This document shows positions 8,680 through 23,248 of a DNA stretch of 64,000 nucleotides, one piece after another; position 1 is the first letter of the stretch; the number at the start of each line of letters is the position of its first letter. Source of the stretch: an uncultured Methanomicrobiales archaeon (GTDB lineage Archaea; Halobacteriota; Methanomicrobia; Methanomicrobiales; Methanospirillaceae); assembly GCA_963758915.1 (NCBI GenBank), contig CAVWXH010000016.1, forward strand, positions 160,001 through 224,000, given 5' to 3'. Below the pieces are notes generated by a model that ran no database searches, had not been told where the DNA came from, and was given only the letters and a program-made list of their open reading frames with translations. The position numbers and the translations under genes were made by a program.

Positions 8680-9917
8680 ATGGAAGCCTCGCGGGAGATC
8701 GAGCTTGAAGGCCATATTATCGACTCGGGCATCATGACTCAGATCTTTGATAAGATCATGGATATGGGTGGTAATTTCGAGATCCTCGTATTTGATGTAG
8801 GAAAACAGAAGACTGACCCAAGTTATGCGCGCCTGAAAGTTAATGCCGCGAGTGATGAACGAGTCGATGCCATCATATCCGAGCTCCACCGCTATGGTGC
8901 CCGCCTTCTTGCAATCGCGGATGTCAGAATAATACCGGCAGAGGCTGACCGTGTTGTCCCAAAAGGTTTCTATTCAACGACCAATTACCCGACATCGATT
9001 AAGTTCCTTGAGTCGTGGATCCCGGTCCAGGCGATAGAGATGGACTGCCTCATTGTGCTCGATACAGAGAGGCTTATCGCAAGGAGCACACCGCTGTCAA
9101 AGCTGAAGAAAGGTGACATGGTAGTCGTCGGCGAGCAGGGTGTACGGATCGTACCCCTGAACGGCCAAGGGAAAAGACCAGCTTTGAATTCATGCACGGG
9201 ACGGTATCTTCAGAGCGTCCCAGTGAAACGATAATCGCGAGAATTGCGAAGGAGATCCTCGAGGTGCACAGGAAGGGAGGAAAAATTGCCCTGGTGGGAG
9301 GACCTGCAATCATTCACACCGGTGCTGACAGGGCACTGGCCGAAATCATCAGGAAAGGTTACATAAATGTCATTTTTGCAGGGAATGCGCTTGCCACCCA
9401 TGATATCGAGTACAACCTGTTCGGTACCTCGTTAGGGATGGACCTGTCAACAGGTAAACCTGTAACCGGCGGGCATAAAAACCACCTGTATGCGATCAGC
9501 GAGGTCATGAGGGCCGGGTCAATTAAAAATGCGGTTGAACAGGGTATCATCACGGGGGGCATTATGTTCGAGTGCGTGAAAAACGATGTACCCTTCGTCC
9601 TGGCAGGGTCCATCAGGGATGACGGTCCCCTCCCCGATGTGATTACCGATATCCTTGTTGCACAGGACCGGATGCGTGACTATACCCAGTCATGCAGCAT
9701 GGTCCTGATGGTGGCAACCCTGCTCCATTCAATCGCGGTGGGTAACTGCCTGCCCTCCTATGTCAAGACAATATGTGTCGACATCAATCCTTCATCGGTG
9801 ACAAAATTAATGGACCGTGGGACTATGCAGGCAATCGGTGTAGTCAGTGATGCCGGCACATTCCTGCCACTCCTGGCAAAACAACTTGATATCCAGAGTG
9901 GATGCAATCAAATCTGA
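8680..9917 (+). CDS. TIGR00300 / LOR-SDH-like (ArgZ/AgrE C-terminal type) ornithine cyclodeaminase; frameshifted near 9154-9157
   Basis: [38 protein letters not shown]; adding one C restores [24 protein letters not shown] (412 aa). Confidence 0.85.
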
Positions 9918-14190: not shown

Positions 14191-14432
14191 TCCCGTTTTT
14201 TTCTCCATTGTATCGTGCGATGCTTTTTTTTGATATTTCCTGTATGTATCCGGGTACAGGAGGGCAGGAAAAAACTACCGCTACTTCGGCTCAGGTGAGA
14301 CCTGGTATCCATTCGATGAATAATTGCCAGTGCCGGTTGAACGCTAGACTAATATAGATGGGGTAAATATAGGAAAGAGAAAACACCATCTATCATCAGT
14401 ACTTTTTCCCCGGGATTTCCAGGGTGTAAAAA

Positions 14433-16377
14433 ATGGCAGGGAAATCAGGAATAATCTTTGAACTTGGCGAGAGCGGCCTTCTTTTACCTGAGATGGTTAA
14501 TGCCGGGCTGACCGCAAACGACCAGGTAAAATATTTTTTCACCCTTCTCCAGACAGCACAGGTACATTCTGATCATCCGGACCTTGAATGTGTAAACCTT
14601 TCGAGGGAACGTGAAGCCGCCGGTATCGAATCTGACATCTTTGACCATGTCGTTTCAGGAGCTAAAAAGACCGGGCCCCTGTTGTACCAGGTACCGGAAC
14701 TCGTTTCTATTCTTACCGGGATTAGACGTTGTTTCCACGTGATGCAGCTCCCTGTTGCCAAGAACGGCCTCCCGGAAGCGGAAGACTTTGATGAAAGGAT
14801 GAAAAAGCTCCTGGATGAATTGCCCGACTCTCACGAGGATGTTATAAGCGGCAGGGTGATTGAGGACATTACCCGGGGTGACCCAGAGGGACCGGACAGC
14901 CTGCATCTCCTCCTGATGGACATGCATAAGTCGTTAAACAATCTGCAGAAACTGATATCCACTGAAAATATCGCCGGTGCAATGACCTATAACCTCCAGG
15001 AGCAGGATAAATGTCTTATCCTGGCATTTATGTCGGGAGTCAACCGGACATCACCGCTGAAATTCGATCACCCCGGCCTTGGTACAACGGCCACGAGGAC
15101 AAATGGCAGGCTGGTACTCCAGAATGACATCGGGTTAACTGATGCGCACGTCCTTGTCATCCATGTTGAACAAACGCAGATCAATATCACCTATACCGAT
15201 ATCCATATGCCCCGCCTGCAGTTTTTCCAGGGGCTTTTTGATTCCTGGAACATGACCTGGGAAGACACACGCTCGAGAAAAGGCGATGCATCCTTCGAAA
15301 AAAGGCTATTCCACCTTTCGAATGGAAGTTACCATACGAAGGACGAGGAAGAACAGAGGAAATTTCTGGAATTTCTTGGGTCGAGAATAGTTTTCCTGAT
15401 CGACTGGAACCGGGCGAGAAAGCGGTTACGGAGTTTCCTGCCAAATAAAGACTGTGTCACCGTGCTCAGGTGGTCAGCTGAACATGAAGTCGGGCATGTC
15501 GGGTTCCTCCAGCTCGGTGGAGAAAAGCTGATCTATGACGGGCTTGAAATGGCAGCAAGGATCCCGCTACGATATGGCGAGCCCCTGTACCAGATACTTG
15601 GGAGGGAGAAGACCATTGAGTATTTCCAGTGGGTTTTTAACGCAGCAGCGAAAGGCCTGCTGGCAAATCACTCCAGGTTACTCATCCAGGACGAAATTAA
15701 AGCTCGAATTACTCAGGTACTTCCATTCTGCGCACGAGAACCTGATGGAAATCTGCGAACAGCACGCAACCCTGACGGTTGAAGTCGCCATGGTCGTCAG
15801 GGACGCACTCCTTCATATACAGAGAAAGGAAAACAGCCAGTTTATCGAGAGGACTGCAAGGCGCGCAAAAATCTGGGAGAGCGAGGCGGACAACCTCGTC
15901 TCAAAAGTCCGGTCGCTTTCACTCCGCTTCGAAGCTGCACGGGAATATACCGAGCTGATAAACGTGGCAGATGATGCCCTCGATTTTCTTGAAGAGGCAA
16001 GTTTTTTCACGACCCTTGTCCCAAGGAGCACCCATTCTGAAAAGATGTTACAGGAACTTGTCATGCTAGGGGAAATTGCTGTAAAAGGGAGCCAGGGATA
16101 TCTGAAAGCGGTGATTGCATCCCAGTACGTGCATAAAGGATACAGCCGGGAGGAGATGCAGGACTTCATCCGGGCCATCGATAGTGTGATCAGCATGGAA
16201 CGTGAAGCAGACGAGGTACTCAGGACTACCGAGAGGGTGATCCTTGCTGAAACGACTGATTACAAAGAATTACTGGTATTCTTTGAAATCGCACGAATTA
16301 TTGAGGATTCAACGAATTCCCTGATGAAAGCCGCTTTCGTATTGAGGAACAATATCCTCGAGAGTCTGAACTGGTAA
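14433..16377 (+). CDS. Large protein with an unknown N-terminal domain and a C-terminal DUF47/PhoU-like helical domain; frameshifted near 15699-15701
   Basis: Removing one A joins ORFs 14433 and 15535 (IQDEIKLELLRYF; 647 aa); twin ExxAD motifs (ESEAD, EREAD) typical of DUF47. Confidence 0.72.
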
Positions 16378-16379
16378 TT

Positions 16380-17981
16380 ATGACAAATGACTTATCGCCG
16401 CGTATTGTCTTTTTCGGGCCCGGGGTGCGGGCAGAGATACCTCCTGAAGACTTTGGTAATAAGGCCGCAGGCCTTGGGACGATGTCCTCACTTGGTATGC
16501 CTATTCCCCCAGGTTTTGCATTAAATGTTTCAATCTGTGAAGATTATTATAAAAACGGGATGAAGGTCCCGTCTTCTCTCCCGGACCTCCTCCAGGAAGG
16601 GATCTCTTACCTTGAACATGCTACCGGTCTCCAGTATGGCAGCGGGCGGAAACCTCTCCTTGTTTCTGTACGGTCGGGGGCGCAGGTATCGATGCCCGGT
16701 ATTATGGACACCATTCTTAATGTCGGGCTGAACCATGAAACGATACGGGGAATGACTTTTCTGACCGGGAATCCCAGGTTTGCCTGGGACTCCTACCGCC
16801 GGCTCTTCGAGAACATGGCCGAGATCGTTTTCCGCCAGAACCCACACGATTACAGGGCCCTTTTATCAGAAATAATGGAGGCGGAAGGAATAACTGACGT
16901 GGTTGAAATGGACTCAGCCAGCCTTAAGAAACTGGCCATTCAATACCAGCGATTGTTTTTTTCTATTGAAAACTCCGATTTCCCGGAAGATGTGAAAACA
17001 CAGCTCCTGATCTCTTCAATTGCCGTGCTTCGTTCATGGACAAATCCAAGGGCTGATTCGTTCCGAAGGATGCACCCGGTACATAGCCTTCGTGGTACCG
17101 CCATCACCATACAGGCAATGGTATTTGGCAATATGGGGCTGAATTCAGGTGCCGGAGTTGTGTTTTCCCGGAACCCCTGGAGCGGAGAGAATGAACCTGT
17201 CATTGATTTTAAGTTCGGTGCACAGGGGGAGGATGTTGTATCCGGGAACCAGTCTGCCACCACGCAGGGCGAGTTAAAAAAATCAATGCCTTCTGTTTAC
17301 GAGGACCTGAGGCAGATAGGGAGAACGGTTGAATCGCATTTTCATGATATGCAGGACATGGAGTTTACGGTACAGGAAGGGAAACTCTATATCCTGCAGA
17401 CCCGAAACGGGAAACGTTCCCCCCTGTCTGCAATCAGGATCGCTGTTGATTTGTGGCGGGAAGGGATAATCACGCCCGAAGTCGCGTTATCACAGTTAGA
17501 TGGCCTCGATCTCGAATCGATCAAAGTCCGCTTTGTTTCCACTATGGACTACCCGATTGCGACCGGTACCTCGGCATCCGGAGGTGTGGCGAGCGGCATC
17601 ATGGTATTTACACCTGAACGGGCGTTACAGGAATCCCCGTCAGGACCTGTAATCCTTGTCAGGGAGACTGCATCAACGGATGATATCGAGGGGATACGGG
17701 TCGCTTCGGGGTTACTGACAGCGAAAGGAGCACGGACATCGCATGCGGCAGTAGTTGCCCGACACATGGGGAAGGTCTGCATCGTGAATTGTTCCGGCCT
17801 GGAGATTGACCTCTCCTCCAACAAATGTCACCTGGGTGGTCAGGTACTCCGGGAAGGGGATACTATTTCACTGGATGGGAATTCCGGTTCGGTATATACG
17901 GGGATTGTCGGCACCACCTATGAAAAACCGAGGGAGTTGCTGGATATTGTCCATGGATGGAAAAACATCCCGTCCGGATGA
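16380..17981 (+). CDS. Pyruvate phosphate dikinase-like protein lacking the C-terminal pyruvate-binding domain
   Basis: GNKA, VSVRSGA..SMPG.MDT.LN, QGEDVVSG, DMEF, LQTR and phospho-His motif TSHAAVVAR; ends at 533 aa. Confidence 0.88.
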   Translation: MTNDLSPRIVFFGPGVRAEIPPEDFGNKAAGLGTMSSLGMPIPPGFALNVSICEDYYKNGMKVPSSLPDLLQEGISYLEHATGLQYGSGRKPLLVSVRSGAQVSMPGIMDTILNVGLNHETIRGMTFLTGNPRFAWDSYRRLFENMAEIVFRQNPHDYRALLSEIMEAEGITDVVEMDSASLKKLAIQYQRLFFSIENSDFPEDVKTQLLISSIAVLRSWTNPRADSFRRMHPVHSLRGTAITIQAMVFGNMGLNSGAGVVFSRNPWSGENEPVIDFKFGAQGEDVVSGNQSATTQGELKKSMPSVYEDLRQIGRTVESHFHDMQDMEFTVQEGKLYILQTRNGKRSPLSAIRIAVDLWREGIITPEVALSQLDGLDLESIKVRFVSTMDYPIATGTSASGGVASGIMVFTPERALQESPSGPVILVRETASTDDIEGIRVASGLLTAKGARTSHAAVVARHMGKVCIVNCSGLEIDLSSNKCHLGGQVLREGDTISLDGNSGSVYTGIVGTTYEKPRELLDIVHGWKNIPSG

Positions 17982-18251: not shown

Positions 18252-20112
18252 GTGATTCTTACGAAACTATCGCATCTTGTAATTCTTACCATTATCCTCG
18301 GGATGATGACAACCGGTTTTGTATCAGCTGAAATTCTGCCAGTTGAAAATATTGGTGGTGGAAAGGGATATTATGATATTTCGTCTAATCCGGAAGGTGG
18401 GACTGTCATCTTTGACGGGAAAAACAAGGGGATTACCCCCGTTACCGTTGAAGTGAGTACCTCAGGGACACCCGGGCATACGATCAGCATCTCCAAAGAA
18501 GGGTACCGGACATGGAGCTCGAATCAGCCCGGTAACCCATTCGAGGGCGAAACTATCAGTATTAATGCCGATCTTCTGTTTATTCCCGTTACTGAACCGA
18601 CCACCCTGCCCCCGACTACGATAATTGGCGGAGGAAAGGGGTATTATGATATTTCGTCTAACCCGGAAGGCGGGACTGTCATCTTTGACGGGAAAAACAA
18701 GGGGATTACCCCCGTTACCGTTGAAGTGAGTACCTCAGGGACACCCGGGCATACGATCAGCATCTCCAAAGAAGGGTACCGGACATGGAGCTCGAATCAG
18801 CCCGGTAACCCATTCGAGGGCGAAACCGTGCATGTTGATGCAGACCTCGTGTTTATACCGATAACTCTTCCTCCGACACCAATAGGGGGCGAGAAGGGGT
18901 ATTATTATGTTATGTCCAGCCCCAGTGGCGCAGCTGTCAGCCTTGACGGGACGAACCAGGGAACAACCCCCATAAATCTTGAGGTAAGTTCCACCGGCAC
19001 GCCTGGCCATACCATCGGTGTCGCGATGCCCGGTTACCAGTCCTGGAGCCAGTATTACCCCGGAAACCCACCGGCAGGATCGACGGTAACGGTTAATGCA
19101 GTGTTATCCCCCATGTACCAGAATGGTAATATCCAGGTGATGTCTTCGCCTTCGGGTGCATATGCGGTACTCGACAACGGTCAGAACTCGATGGTCACAC
19201 CCGGGACTTTTTCTTCGGTTTCCGCCGGGTGGCATAACGTAAGGGTAACAAAAACCGGGTATTACCCCTATTCACAAGATGTCCAGGTAAATGCGGGAGG
19301 CACAAGACTCGGTGTCAGCCAACCTTGTCCAGATCTCACAACAGGGGAGTATATCAATCAGCTCAACCCCGAACGGGGCGGGTATCTACGTCGACACAAT
19401 TTACCAGGGAGAAACGAACCAGATTGTCGGCAATCTTGCAACCGGATCCCATACCGTAACCCTCAAAAAAGCAGGGTACCAGACCTGGTCTTCGCAGTAT
19501 TCTGTATATTCCGGTCAGACTACGTATGTAACCGCCCAGCTCGCACCGGTCTTGAACCCGTCCACCGGGGACCTCCTTGTTCTTTCGTCCCCCTCGGGTG
19601 CGGCAGTATATGTTGATGGTGACTACCAGGGTTCCACGTCACCGGGAAGCCCCCTGGATGTTGTGTCACTGTCACAAGGGACTCACACCGTTGTATTGAA
19701 AAAATCCGGGTACCAGGACTATACGACCACGGCGAATATTCGTGCAGGACAAACGGTACAGGTATCGGCAACACTTGTACCCTCGGGGCAACCCGCCACC
19801 ACGGCGAGTGTTCAGATTACGTCAGACCCAAGCGGGGCAGATGTACTCATCAATAATGGTTACATGGGCATTACGCCATTAACCGCCCAGAACGTGCAAC
19901 CCGGTTCGTCCACTATCACAATTACGCTGGCGGGATACAATCCGTATTCAAGCACGCTGCAGATTACTTCCGGCCAGGCACTGCAGGTAAATGCGGCACT
20001 GTCACCCGTTGCAACACCCACGAAGAAAGCCCCGGTAAGTCCGTTCTTGGCGATCCTGGCAGTAGCAATTATTGGTACAATTGCGATGGTTAGGTTCAGA
20101 CCAAAAATGTGA
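18252..20112 (+). CDS. PEGA-domain cell-surface protein; frameshifted near 19304
   Basis: Signal peptide, about 7 SSxPxGA..DG...GxTP PEGA repeats, C-terminal KKAPVSP + TM + basic tail; a one-base fix gives 619 aa. Confidence 0.88.
18354..18826 (+). repeat. Intragenic direct repeat (18354-18553 and 18627-18826; offset 273 bp)
   Basis: 18399-18553 appears identical to 18672-18826. Confidence 0.92.
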
Positions 20113-20660: not shown

Positions 20661-20773
20661 GAACCGGGACCGGTCAGGCAGAAATGTCTGTCCCCGCGTT
20701 CCTTAATCCTGCCTTTCAAATAATATACTATATATCAGATTAACCGAAATTGGGAATATGCTGTGAAATACCC

Positions 20774-23248
20774 ATGAAACTCCAGGAAAAAACTCTTCTT
20801 GTTTTTATCGTCCTGCTCATATCGGTCCTTGTAGTCATCAGCATATTTTTTTCCACCATACTCCTTGCAAGTTACAGCGGCCTTGAAGAGCAGTATATAG
20901 AAAAAGACCTTGGCCAGGCGGTCAGCAAACTCGACGACGAACTGTTTACCATGTCGTCTATCGTGTCTGACTGGGGGCCCTGGGATGATACGGTTGATTT
21001 TGTAAACGGAAATGATCCGGAGTACCTTAAATCAAATCTCCAGCCATATGGCTTTGATAATCTCAACCTGAACCTTATTGTTCTTACCAATACCAGGGGG
21101 GAGGTCCTCTTTTCGGGTGCATACGATCTCGGGGACAAGGTGATGGTCCCGGTTCCGGCTTTCTTTTCCGGAAAACTGGAACTCAACAATCCCCTGATGA
21201 ATATGTCGGACCCCCACCAGATAACAACGGGAATTCTGATGCTGCCTGATGATCCGATGCTTGTTGTGTCGCAACCCATTGTACATTCCGATTTTTCCGG
21301 CCCCCCCCAGGGAGTCGTGATCATGGGGCGATACCTCAACAAGGCAGAAATATCGAGGCTGGGAGAACTCACACGACCCAGTCTTACCTTCACCCGTACC
21401 GATGACCCTGCCTTATCACCAGAGCTGGTTATGCATATCCGGGAGGACAGCGGGTCGGCACCGGGAATTATTGCGCAGCTGAACAGGGATGAGGTCGCAG
21501 GATATGCTCTGATTAAGGATATTTACGGGAATGACGCGCTAGTTCTCCAGATCACTGAAGCCCGTGATATCTACCACCAGGGATTAACTACCACGATGGA
21601 GGTTTTCATGATCATAATCCTGAGCGGGGTATTCCTGGGACTTGTGGTAATTATTCTGCTGGACCGGTTGCTGCTGGAACGTATGAACTCACTGGCTGAA
21701 CAGGTCTATAAGATAGGTAAATCCGGAAGTACCACGGAGCACGTGGAGATCGGTGGGGATGACGAACTCTCCGGGCTTGCAGTTGAAATAAACCGTATGC
21801 TGGATACGATCGAACTGACGCAGGCAAAGGTCCAGGCCAGTGAGGCACGGTTTCGGGGACTTGCGGAGAACCTGCCGCTGGTCATATTCGAGATGGACAC
21901 AACTGGTCGTCTTCAGTATGTTAATAAGGCCGGTGTAGAAATATTCGGGGTTACCGAAGACAAGATCGCACAGGGTATTAATATCCGGTATTATTTATCC
22001 CCTGAAAATATCGGGATGATGGAGCGGGGGCTTACAGCAGTGCTGTCCGGCACCCGGTCTCCCGGAGAGACCTATACCTTAACACGGTCCGATGGCAGCC
22101 TGATGAAGGCCATTGTATATACATCACTCATTTACCGGGAAGAGAAGGTAACCGGTTTCAGGGGAATAGTTATTGATATATCAGGACGGCTTGAGCTGGA
22201 AGAGGCGCTAAAGGACAGCGAGGAAAAATACCGGACGCTTGCCGAAAATTCAGCAGATATCATATTCTCGCTTGATATAACGGGAACATTCACTTATATC
22301 TCCCCGCAGGTATCCCGGTACGGTTACACTCCACCTGAAATTGTAGGTAAAGGGATCCAAATGTTCATACACCCGGATGACCATGCAAAGGTCCTCGATA
22401 ATTACCACCGGGAGATGAAGGACGGCTCTTCCATCGCATCAACATTCAGGATCATAGACAAGCCGGGCGCCCTCCACTGGGTGGAGGAGAACAGCAATAT
22501 AAAATTTGATGACCAGGGAAAGCCGATGGGAATGGTTGGAATCCTCCGGGATGTGACCGACCGGATGCGGGCAGAAGATGCGATAGACCTTGCCAACAAA
22601 AAATTAAACCTGATGAATAATATTACGCGTCATGATATCCTCAATACCATCAGCGGGTTATTAGGGTGCGTGGACATGGCGAACGCTACCTCATCTCCCG
22701 AAGAAAAGACCCGGCTGCTCAATGATATCAGGGACCTCACCCGCATCATTCAGCGCCAGATTGAATTTACCAGGGAATACCAGGAAGTCGGGGTCCACCT
22801 GCCGTTATGGCAGAATGTTCAAAAGGTGATCGACAAGGTTTTGCAGAATTTCGAAAAAACCGACCTTCATTTTTCGATCAATTCCGAGGATATGGAGATC
22901 TATGCGGATCCCCTGCTGGAGAAGGTGTTCTACAACCTGGTTGATAATGCAAAAAGGTACGGGGAGACTATCACGACCATAAGGATATCCACCCAGGCTT
23001 CCGGGAAAGGTACCCTGTTGATTTTCGCGGACGATGGCATAGGAATACCCGTTGATCAAAAAATCCGTATTTTCGAGCGGGGCGTGGGAAGGAATACGGG
23101 TATGGGATTGTTCCTCACCCGGGAGATACTCTCCATTACGGGCATTACGATTAAGGAAAACGGTGTTCCTGGGAAAGGGGCACGCTTCGAAATCTTGATC
23201 CCATGGGGTACATTCAGGTCTGTCAGTGACAGATTGCCACATGGTTAA
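20774..23248 (+). CDS. Membrane sensor histidine kinase (CHASE4-HAMP-PAS-PAS-HisKA-HATPase)
   Basis: TM, DWGPWDDT CHASE4 motif, DELSGLA HAMP, two PAS domains, ITRHDILN H-box, NLVDNA, DDGIGI, TGMGL. Confidence 0.92.
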   Translation: MKLQEKTLLVFIVLLISVLVVISIFFSTILLASYSGLEEQYIEKDLGQAVSKLDDELFTMSSIVSDWGPWDDTVDFVNGNDPEYLKSNLQPYGFDNLNLNLIVLTNTRGEVLFSGAYDLGDKVMVPVPAFFSGKLELNNPLMNMSDPHQITTGILMLPDDPMLVVSQPIVHSDFSGPPQGVVIMGRYLNKAEISRLGELTRPSLTFTRTDDPALSPELVMHIREDSGSAPGIIAQLNRDEVAGYALIKDIYGNDALVLQITEARDIYHQGLTTTMEVFMIIILSGVFLGLVVIILLDRLLLERMNSLAEQVYKIGKSGSTTEHVEIGGDDELSGLAVEINRMLDTIELTQAKVQASEARFRGLAENLPLVIFEMDTTGRLQYVNKAGVEIFGVTEDKIAQGINIRYYLSPENIGMMERGLTAVLSGTRSPGETYTLTRSDGSLMKAIVYTSLIYREEKVTGFRGIVIDISGRLELEEALKDSEEKYRTLAENSADIIFSLDITGTFTYISPQVSRYGYTPPEIVGKGIQMFIHPDDHAKVLDNYHREMKDGSSIASTFRIIDKPGALHWVEENSNIKFDDQGKPMGMVGILRDVTDRMRAEDAIDLANKKLNLMNNITRHDILNTISGLLGCVDMANATSSPEEKTRLLNDIRDLTRIIQRQIEFTREYQEVGVHLPLWQNVQKVIDKVLQNFEKTDLHFSINSEDMEIYADPLLEKVFYNLVDNAKRYGETITTIRISTQASGKGTLLIFADDGIGIPVDQKIRIFERGVGRNTGMGLFLTREILSITGITIKENGVPGKGARFEILIPWGTFRSVSDRLPHG

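Follow-up and report, generated by a model that had tools for sequence, protein, structure and literature searches.

The window analyzed in this study is a stretch of 64,000 nucleotides from an uncultured Methanomicrobiales archaeon of the Methanospirillaceae (GenBank assembly GCA_963758915.1, contig CAVWXH010000016.1, positions 160,001 to 224,000 of the forward strand), and two adjoining genes on its + strand probably encode the two halves of a single phosphoenolpyruvate (PEP)-utilizing dikinase system of the pyruvate, phosphate dikinase (PPDK) type. The downstream gene (16380..17981) codes for a PPDK of 533 amino acids, referred to here as the short PPDK, which comes to a clean end without the PEP/pyruvate TIM barrel, and the upstream gene (14433..16377) codes for a protein of 647 amino acids, referred to as the partner, which would stand in place of the missing barrel. 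That the partner works with the barrel-less PPDK instead of a pyruvate domain is well supported by sequence comparison because of the synteny of the two genes, their co-occurrence, and their natural fusions. An earlier note, made from the letters of this DNA, had proposed that the partner supplies the acceptor or the sensor in trans; its action in place of the pyruvate domain is well supported, and it may serve there as an acceptor, a catalytic module, or a sensor. The observations that carry this argument concern the domain content of the two proteins, their strict co-occurrence, their natural fusions, the single clade formed by the short PPDKs, and the PhoU-like fold at the end of the partner. 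We rate the pair as a new, widespread, and uncharacterized variant of the PEP-utilizing dikinase design that occurs in both archaea and bacteria, and no paper on it was found in a literature search whose coverage left out subscription journals and supplements.

Domain composition of the short PPDK

A Pfam search of the short PPDK returned PPDK_N (PF01326, 1.1e-40) and the PEP-utilizers mobile domain (PF00391, 1.9e-19) and nothing else, with no match to the PF02896 barrel. The former match, together with the alignment to the PPDK structure 1kbl, places an ATP-grasp nucleotide-binding domain at residues ~25-380 (16452..17519), and the latter places the phospho-histidine swivel domain at residues ~394-513 (17559..17918), which also matches the isolated central domain 2fm4 (7.9e-24). 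The PPDK model TIGR01828 was matched only at positions 18-510 of 865, where the 530 bits fall short of the cut-off of 843, and in the C. symbiosum PPDK (1kbl, 873 residues) the stretch 18-512 is the counterpart of residues 25-513 (410 bits), in agreement with the earlier reading of a protein that terminates cleanly before the pyruvate barrel. The PPDK motifs quoted in that reading, that is, GNKA, SVRSG, DMEF, and LQTR, and the swivel motif with its regulatory threonine, TSHAAVVAR, are all present in the 533-residue protein. In an alignment of 41 such sequences, no substitution is seen at the catalytic H455 (codon 17742-17744), K28, R98, E328, Q340, or R342, and hardly any at T453; we take all of these to be counterparts of known active-site residues of PPDK.

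The earlier note had allowed that the homologs might prove to be full-length PPDKs and the truncation a local one. Since all of the best homologs are 525-553 residues long, the loss of the barrel is a trait of the family and did not arise locally. It had also raised the questions of whether a separate pyruvate-domain gene completes the enzyme and whether a full-length ppdK or ppsA exists elsewhere in the genome. No stand-alone PF02896 barrel gene was found in the genome of this methanogen (2.4 Mb, 94% complete), and its sole match to PEP-utilizers_C (PF02896) lies inside an 810-residue frame on contig 9, which also contains a second PPDK_N match and encodes a PpsA-like enzyme of the normal kind.

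Co-occurrence and natural fusion of the two proteins

A phylum sample of 301 genomes was searched with the partner and then with the short PPDK. The partner is present in 12 of the genomes, that of the window included, and each of the 11 others has a short PPDK directly downstream on the same strand. The search with the short PPDK gave matches in 60 genomes, among which short frames (534-564 amino acids) occur only in the 12 partner-bearing ones; the remaining 48 genomes have frames of 885-1008 amino acids, which are full-length PPDKs.

When one genome was scanned for each species, at least 582 partner loci were found, and the neighborhood counts given here and below cover the best 80 of these. 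The 80 loci come from archaea (Methanomicrobiales, Methanosarcinales, Methanoperedens, Methanomassiliicoccales, and Nitrososphaerota) and from bacteria (Planctomycetota, Pseudomonadota, Thermodesulfobacteriota, Acidobacteriota, Actinomycetota, Gemmatimonadota, and Binataceae). A short PPDK lies downstream on the same strand in 77 of them, and the other three loci stop at a contig edge 6-276 nucleotides past the partner. Most of the complete downstream frames (64 of 76) are 497-587 amino acids long, again unlike full-length PPDKs, and the 12 outliers comprise nine artifacts that the start rule produces in GC-rich DNA because the frame stays open farther upstream, two broken frames, and one frame from a Methanoregula metagenome-assembled genome (MAG). 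In this last case (L031:4322-7273), the short PPDK frame of 984 amino acids runs on into an amine-oxidase-like flavoprotein domain, not a barrel, which points to a unique fusion or else to an artifact of the assembly. In a Nitrososphaerales MAG among the 80 loci (G304, the genome of locus L067), all three PPDK_N matches fall within one 577-residue short frame beside the partner, and neither a full-length PPDK nor PpsA was found there with the PPDK_N model, the completeness of this genome not being given.

The two proteins also occur as a single chain. At least 126 partner-matching clusters contain proteins of at least 1134 amino acids, and all 120 of the fusion clusters listed (1175-1243 amino acids) carry PF01326 and PF00391, more than half of them also carrying PF01865, a family that is discussed below for the tail of the partner. 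Several of the fusions are found on contigs of 0.4-3.6 Mb, and the named ones belong to Solirubrobacteraceae; a sample of 401 actinobacterial genomes gave matches in two, both of which are unfused frames. The order in the two fusions inspected is the partner, a linker of ~40-50 residues rich in Ala, Pro, and Arg, and the short PPDK. These natural fusions provide strong comparative evidence that the partner and the short PPDK act as one unit, and the concern of the earlier note that the pairing might not be conserved is answered by its conservation between phyla and by the number of fused clusters.

Relationship to other PPDK forms and dikinases

In a maximum-likelihood tree (LG+G4, 66 rows) rooted on the window genome's own PpsA-like protein, which forms a single long branch, 41 short PPDKs fall into one clade (SH-aLRT 100), separate from 22 archaeal and actinobacterial full-length PPDKs (98) and from two VadK-like proteins (95), the latter being long branches as well. 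The gene neighborhood was checked for 25 of the 41 short PPDK rows, namely the window and 24 loci. Compared with PPDK (EC 2.7.9.1; 1kbl/1dik), the short PPDK keeps the ATP-grasp and swivel domains, the catalytic histidine, and the TSH motif, but it has no TIM barrel, belongs to a separate clade, and is always paired or fused with the 647-residue module that PPDKs do not have.

The same two-domain truncation accompanied by an operonic partner is seen in VadK of mycobacteria and in its counterparts from other actinobacteria. According to the published report, VadK (Rv1127c) is a truncated mycobacterial PPDK that autophosphorylates on the swivel residue His422 with ATP and Mg, has the operonic partner Rv1126c, and is proposed to be a kinase that acts by binding other enzymes (PMC13400623). 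The short PPDK of the window scores 410.1 bits against the VadK-type model NF004531/PRK05878, below the cut-off of 456, and a VadK-like protein of an actinobacterial genome, which is 34% identical to it, scores 889.6 bits against NF004531. The VadK-like gene in that genome is followed downstream by an open reading frame (ORF) for 201 amino acids resembling a winged helix-turn-helix protein, which was considered as a relative of the 647-residue protein and rejected (hhalign probability 0.85%). The small partner is thus located downstream in the VadK type, whereas the unrelated 647-residue partner is located upstream in the present type. Given the separate clades and the unrelated partners, the truncated engine has been put to use in two separate ways, in the VadK type and in the present pair.

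Delivery of the β-phosphate of ATP to an acceptor held by another domain or subunit is known from phenylphosphate synthase, which has split subunits, from glucan water dikinase, and from rifampin phosphotransferase. These enzymes resemble the short PPDK in principle, through the combination of an ATP-grasp domain with a phospho-histidine swivel domain, and their models match it weakly, but they stand on the PpsA-like side while the short PPDK is PPDK-like, and their acceptor modules showed no likeness in sequence or fold to the 647-residue partner.

Structure and conservation of the partner

The partner belongs to a large family, with more than 4000 matches among the 8000 candidates scored, most of which are 647 amino acids long; at 50% identity, the family counts 1081 clusters at E<=1e-3 and 292 at E<=1e-30. 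Homologs are carried by cultured isolates of Methanolinea mesophila, Methanoculleus, and Methanolobus, among others. Neither the parts of the window partner nor an intact homolog, P0005, matched any Pfam or NCBIfam model. An AlphaFold2 model of the family built on 68 sequences reached a pLDDT of 93.1, and the conservation counts given below refer to the same 68 homologs.

The last ~225 residues (422-645, 15696..16368) form a helical bundle of the PhoU/DUF47 type. This region superposes on 3l39 with Z 24.6 and a root-mean-square deviation of 2.8 over 203 of 209 residues (Foldseek E 1e-4), and further matches were found to 2iiu (Z 21.2), PhoU 1t72 (Z 19.5), and other PhoU structures (Z 19-20). 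The window partner and P0005 both fall below the Pfam threshold for PF01865, so the family label is reached through relatives and fold: 44 of the 68 aligned homologs match PF01865 (best 8.4e-11), and fused relatives, with 26-35 bits, exceed the cut-off of 24.4. The bundle surmised in the earlier note is hence borne out, although it is invisible to Pfam in the window protein itself. A profile of the partner family searched against the sequences of the PDB found 3l39 at 2e-8 and otherwise designed or generic bundles; a phmmer search of the same sequences with P0005 gave no match. The six-helix fold is shared with DUF47/PhoU_div (PF01865) and PhoU proteins (3l39, 2iiu/2olt, 1t72, and 1xwm; Z 19-25), but these stand-alone proteins are ~210 amino acids long, whereas the bundle of the partner is the tail of a 647-residue protein. 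Conserved in it are the acidic pairs E482/D486, D517/E520, and E589/D593, and R597 is invariant.

The remaining part of the partner is composed of three regions. Residues 1-177 (14433..14963; AlphaFold2 pLDDT 93) form a bundle of long helices with a conserved DSLHLLVMDLHK helix, in which H158 is kept in 64 of the 68 homologs and H165 in 63. An α/β core at residues 186-322 (14988..15398) holds the most conserved motifs, KFDHPGLGTTATR, QNDIGLTDAH (residues 230-239, 15120-15149), and YTDxHxxRxxFF, and is followed by a helical region at residues 325-410 (15405..15662) with the invariant W325 and N326 (IDWNRARKRL) and with G354 and H355. Conservation is strongest in the core and the following helices, with QNDIGxTDAH among the conserved set; R122, D256, R261, W325, and N326 are kept in all 68 homologs, and H213, H239, H258, and H355 are each kept in 67. 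This cluster of histidine, aspartate, and arginine residues suggests a metal- or phosphate-binding active site.

The earlier note could not assign the first ~430 residues, QNDIGLTDAH included, and the structural searches led to the same outcome. A separate model of the first 423 residues of the window protein (pLDDT 92.9) gave no Foldseek match at E<=1e-3. In structural alignment with VIA-align, the best Z of the helical bundle was 9.9, obtained with generic bundles and within the range of noise, and CheA P1/HPt domains scored Z 7.6-8.3 among unrelated bundles that score equally. The best fold match of the α/β core, the C-terminal domain of T4 MotA (Z 8.0-8.2), is likewise at noise level, and a protein atlas search with residues 1-415 returned an uninformative cluster with a best score of 0.77.

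Proposed mechanism and alternative explanations

By analogy with PPDK and VadK, the short PPDK, which supplies the ATP-grasp domain and the swiveling phospho-histidine carrier, would phosphorylate H455 from the β-phosphate of ATP. The γ-phosphate would probably be passed to inorganic phosphate (Pi) to give AMP and pyrophosphate (PPi), because the short PPDK is a close relative of PPDK and not of PpsA. The swivel domain would then deliver the phosphoryl group to the partner, which would occupy the role of the PEP/pyruvate TIM barrel of PPDK. The best candidate for the receiving site is the His/Asp/Arg-rich α/β core (H213, H239, D256, H258, R261, N326, and H355), where either a bound acceptor or the partner itself would take over the phosphoryl group, and the C-terminal PhoU/DUF47 bundle would add a phosphate- or metal-binding or regulatory element. 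Prediction of a complex between the full partner and the swivel domain (residues 380-533) gave a score of 0.00 in a run without controls, which has no bearing on whether the two bind.

A phosphate- or polyphosphate-related role of the pair is our leading guess, to which the PhoU-like bundle and the neighboring genes point weakly. In two Methanoperedens loci (L036 and L073) and in L075 and L080, a CHAD gene and a gene of the Ppx/GppA type or with metallophosphoesterase and Ppx domain III lie directly upstream on the same strand, and in a Methanoregula locus (L023), a CHAD-HD fusion lies ~600 nucleotides upstream of the pair. A PstS-family gene (TIGR02136, 273.7 bits, over the cut-off) is located upstream in two Methanosarcinaceae loci (L045 and L047), and PBP_like_2 genes are found farther off in two other loci. 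The CHAD-Ppx-partner-short PPDK operons of L075 (Dongiaceae, Pseudomonadota) and L080 (Geobacteraceae, Thermodesulfobacteriota) are nearly identical, with branch lengths of 0.04-0.05 in the tree, which suggests mis-binning or a very recent transfer.

Several points weigh against these proposals. Phosphate-related neighbors occur in only ~10 of the 80 loci, in roughly three to four lineages each, none of the neighbors of the window pair (HypC, YdjM, PEGA proteins, and a CHASE4-PAS histidine kinase) is phosphate-related, and no third gene conserved throughout the 80 loci was found. No polyphosphate function is obviously missing from the window genome, in which polyphosphate kinase PPK1 and four PPK2 are present. 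Residues 1 to ~420 of the partner have no convincing match to a family or a solved fold, and hence give no independent clue to the substrate. None of its highly conserved histidines is strictly invariant (67 of 68 for H213, H239, H258, and H355, and 63-64 of 68 for H158 and H165), and this sits awkwardly with an obligatory phospho-acceptor histidine. The Pi dependence of the short PPDK is deduced only from kinship with PPDK, and contact and phosphate transfer between the two proteins are predictions from comparative evidence. In the tree, 16 of the 41 rows taken as partner-type are database proteins, outside the 25 rows with a checked neighborhood.

Other explanations of the pair have to be considered. 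The short PPDK might be an autophosphorylating histidine kinase, for which the partner would be a sensor or regulator, with its PhoU-like bundle sensing Pi or a metal and thereby controlling the kinase, or the phosphorylated output, so that no small-molecule acceptor would be involved; we regard this as possible but rather unlikely. PhoU-family proteins are regulators, and sensor kinases are found nearby in 6 of the 80 loci and in the window at 20750..23248. VadK, which is reported to be a truncated autophosphorylating PPDK with an operonic partner and binds other enzymes (PMC13400623), sets a precedent, but the VadK-like lineage is a separate clade, and its 201-residue partner is unrelated to the 647-residue protein. 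The N-terminal bundle of the partner gives weak matches to CheA P1/HPt domains (1tqg, Z 8.3; 3kyj, Z 8.2), but these are within the noise of helical bundles, and the bundle histidines H158 and H165 are the least conserved of the conserved histidines in the partner. In our judgment, the dense conserved polar residues of the 420-residue module resemble an active site rather than a sensor. A narrower form of the phosphate-related role, which we think unlikely to hold, is that the pair is an unrecognized PPDK-derived dikinase of inorganic phosphate polymers, whose 647-residue module would bind Pi, PPi, or polyphosphate via the PhoU-like bundle and the His/Asp/Arg core. If so, the pair, which occurs in methanogens, methane oxidizers, ammonia-oxidizing archaea, planctomycetes, and polyphosphate-accumulating Rhodocyclaceae, could for example lengthen polyphosphate, shorten it, or produce PPi in a reaction coupled to ATP/AMP. 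The polyphosphate toolkit of the window genome is unusually rich, with PPK1, four PPK2 genes, two of which have two domains, and a CHAD gene on contigs 5, 7, 10, 2, and 8, and the idea that the pair replaces absent polyphosphate kinases in this genome was rejected because of the PPK1 and the four PPK2. That the pair is still a PEP/pyruvate enzyme, with its barrel provided by another gene or with the partner as a very divergent pyruvate-binding domain, would agree with the similarity of the short PPDK to true PPDKs, which is about as high as that among many PPDKs (410 bits to 1kbl), but is improbable in the extreme: the only PF02896 barrel is part of the separate 810-residue PpsA-like gene, though a missed gene is conceivable in a 94%-complete genome, the model of the partner shows helical bundles and a small α/β core instead of a TIM barrel, and none of the 68 partner homologs gives a PF02896 signal.

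The state of the partner gene raises the further possibility that the pair is decaying and non-functional in the window genome. The gene is called here as two ORFs on the + strand, 14433..15782 (449 amino acids) and, in the next frame, 15535..16377 (280 amino acids), and it reads as 424 + 223 = 647 amino acids, the usual length of the homologs, when the single base 15705 (aaa gct C gaa) is skipped, which is the one-base correction that the earlier note had made. The frameshift would be real if the extra base, which is present in the window sequence at a site without a homopolymer run, belonged to the organism, but three independent DNA runs, belonging to three studies, hold contigs with >=99% identity to the window, all of which have exactly one base fewer there at full depth (14.1/14.1, 9.11/9.11, and 4.2/4.2), one of the runs being possibly the source sample of the window. 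The natural population thus carries an unbroken partner gene, and an error of the assembly or a private mutation is the most likely origin of the extra base. Apart from this base, the two reading frames are uninterrupted and share 92-94% identity with unbroken homologs; P0005 (647 amino acids, 93% identical to the partner) reads ..DEIKAELLRYFHSAH.. through the break point, and its uninterrupted stretch spanning the frame change of the window is ...LLIQDEIKAELLRYFHSAHENL.... Two further genes of the window seem to be split. The overlapping ORFs 8680..9234 and 9192..9917 (+) encode successive parts of one LOR/SDH-ArgZ-like protein, the former containing Saccharop_dh_N and the first region of ArgZ-like_C, broken at profile position 58 of 84, and the latter the second region of ArgZ-like_C, and this is probably another one-base frameshift of the assembly. 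The ORFs 18252..19616 and 19291..20112 (+), which lie in different frames with an overlap of 326 nucleotides and are both rich in PEGA domains, appear to be a single PEGA-repeat protein that a frameshift has divided. These cases suggest indel errors in the assembly, and decay of the pair is quite improbable.

Significance for annotation and biochemistry

PPDK-family dikinases are a classic case in which a single phosphotransfer engine serves different acceptor domains. The present pair represents a large branch that is annotated as "pyruvate, phosphate dikinase" or "PEP/pyruvate-binding protein" but should be unable to make PEP, a branch that extends over at least 582 species-level genomes and 1081 clusters at 50% identity in split and fused forms. 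Such annotations inflate inferences about gluconeogenesis and PPi metabolism in methanogens, ammonia-oxidizing archaea, and wastewater bacteria. The partner contributes ~420 well-folded and highly conserved residues, and knowledge of their ligand would establish a new acceptor module and perhaps also a reaction new to phosphate or energy metabolism. The natural fusions are a ready single-chain target for biochemical and structural work.

Gene layout, transcription, and nearby sensor kinases

The stop codon TAA of the partner gene ends at 16377 and the ATG of the short PPDK gene begins at 16380, which confirms the gap of 2 nucleotides first noted from the letters. Upstream of the partner, oligo-T runs after hypC are followed, ~60-80 nucleotides before the ATG, by two TATA-like A/T boxes (taatatag and aaatatag; 14350..14372, +), a candidate archaeal promoter by sequence reading only, and the spacer 3' of the short PPDK gene is 270 nucleotides long. 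Because of the 2-nucleotide gap, the upstream oligo-T runs and TATA-like boxes, and the downstream spacer, the two genes seem to form a bicistronic unit. In one metatranscriptome library, contigs span parts of both genes with 99-100% identity, matching 15746-15979 with one mismatch and 16726-16999 with none, which gives a weak hint of expression of the pair.

A histidine kinase with CHASE4, HAMP, and PAS domains is encoded at 20750..23248 (+), ~2.8 kb downstream of the pair. A CHASE4 hybrid kinase adjoins the pair in a Methanomassiliicoccales locus (L051:1051-3834), and a cluster with sensor kinases is present in 6 of the 80 loci.

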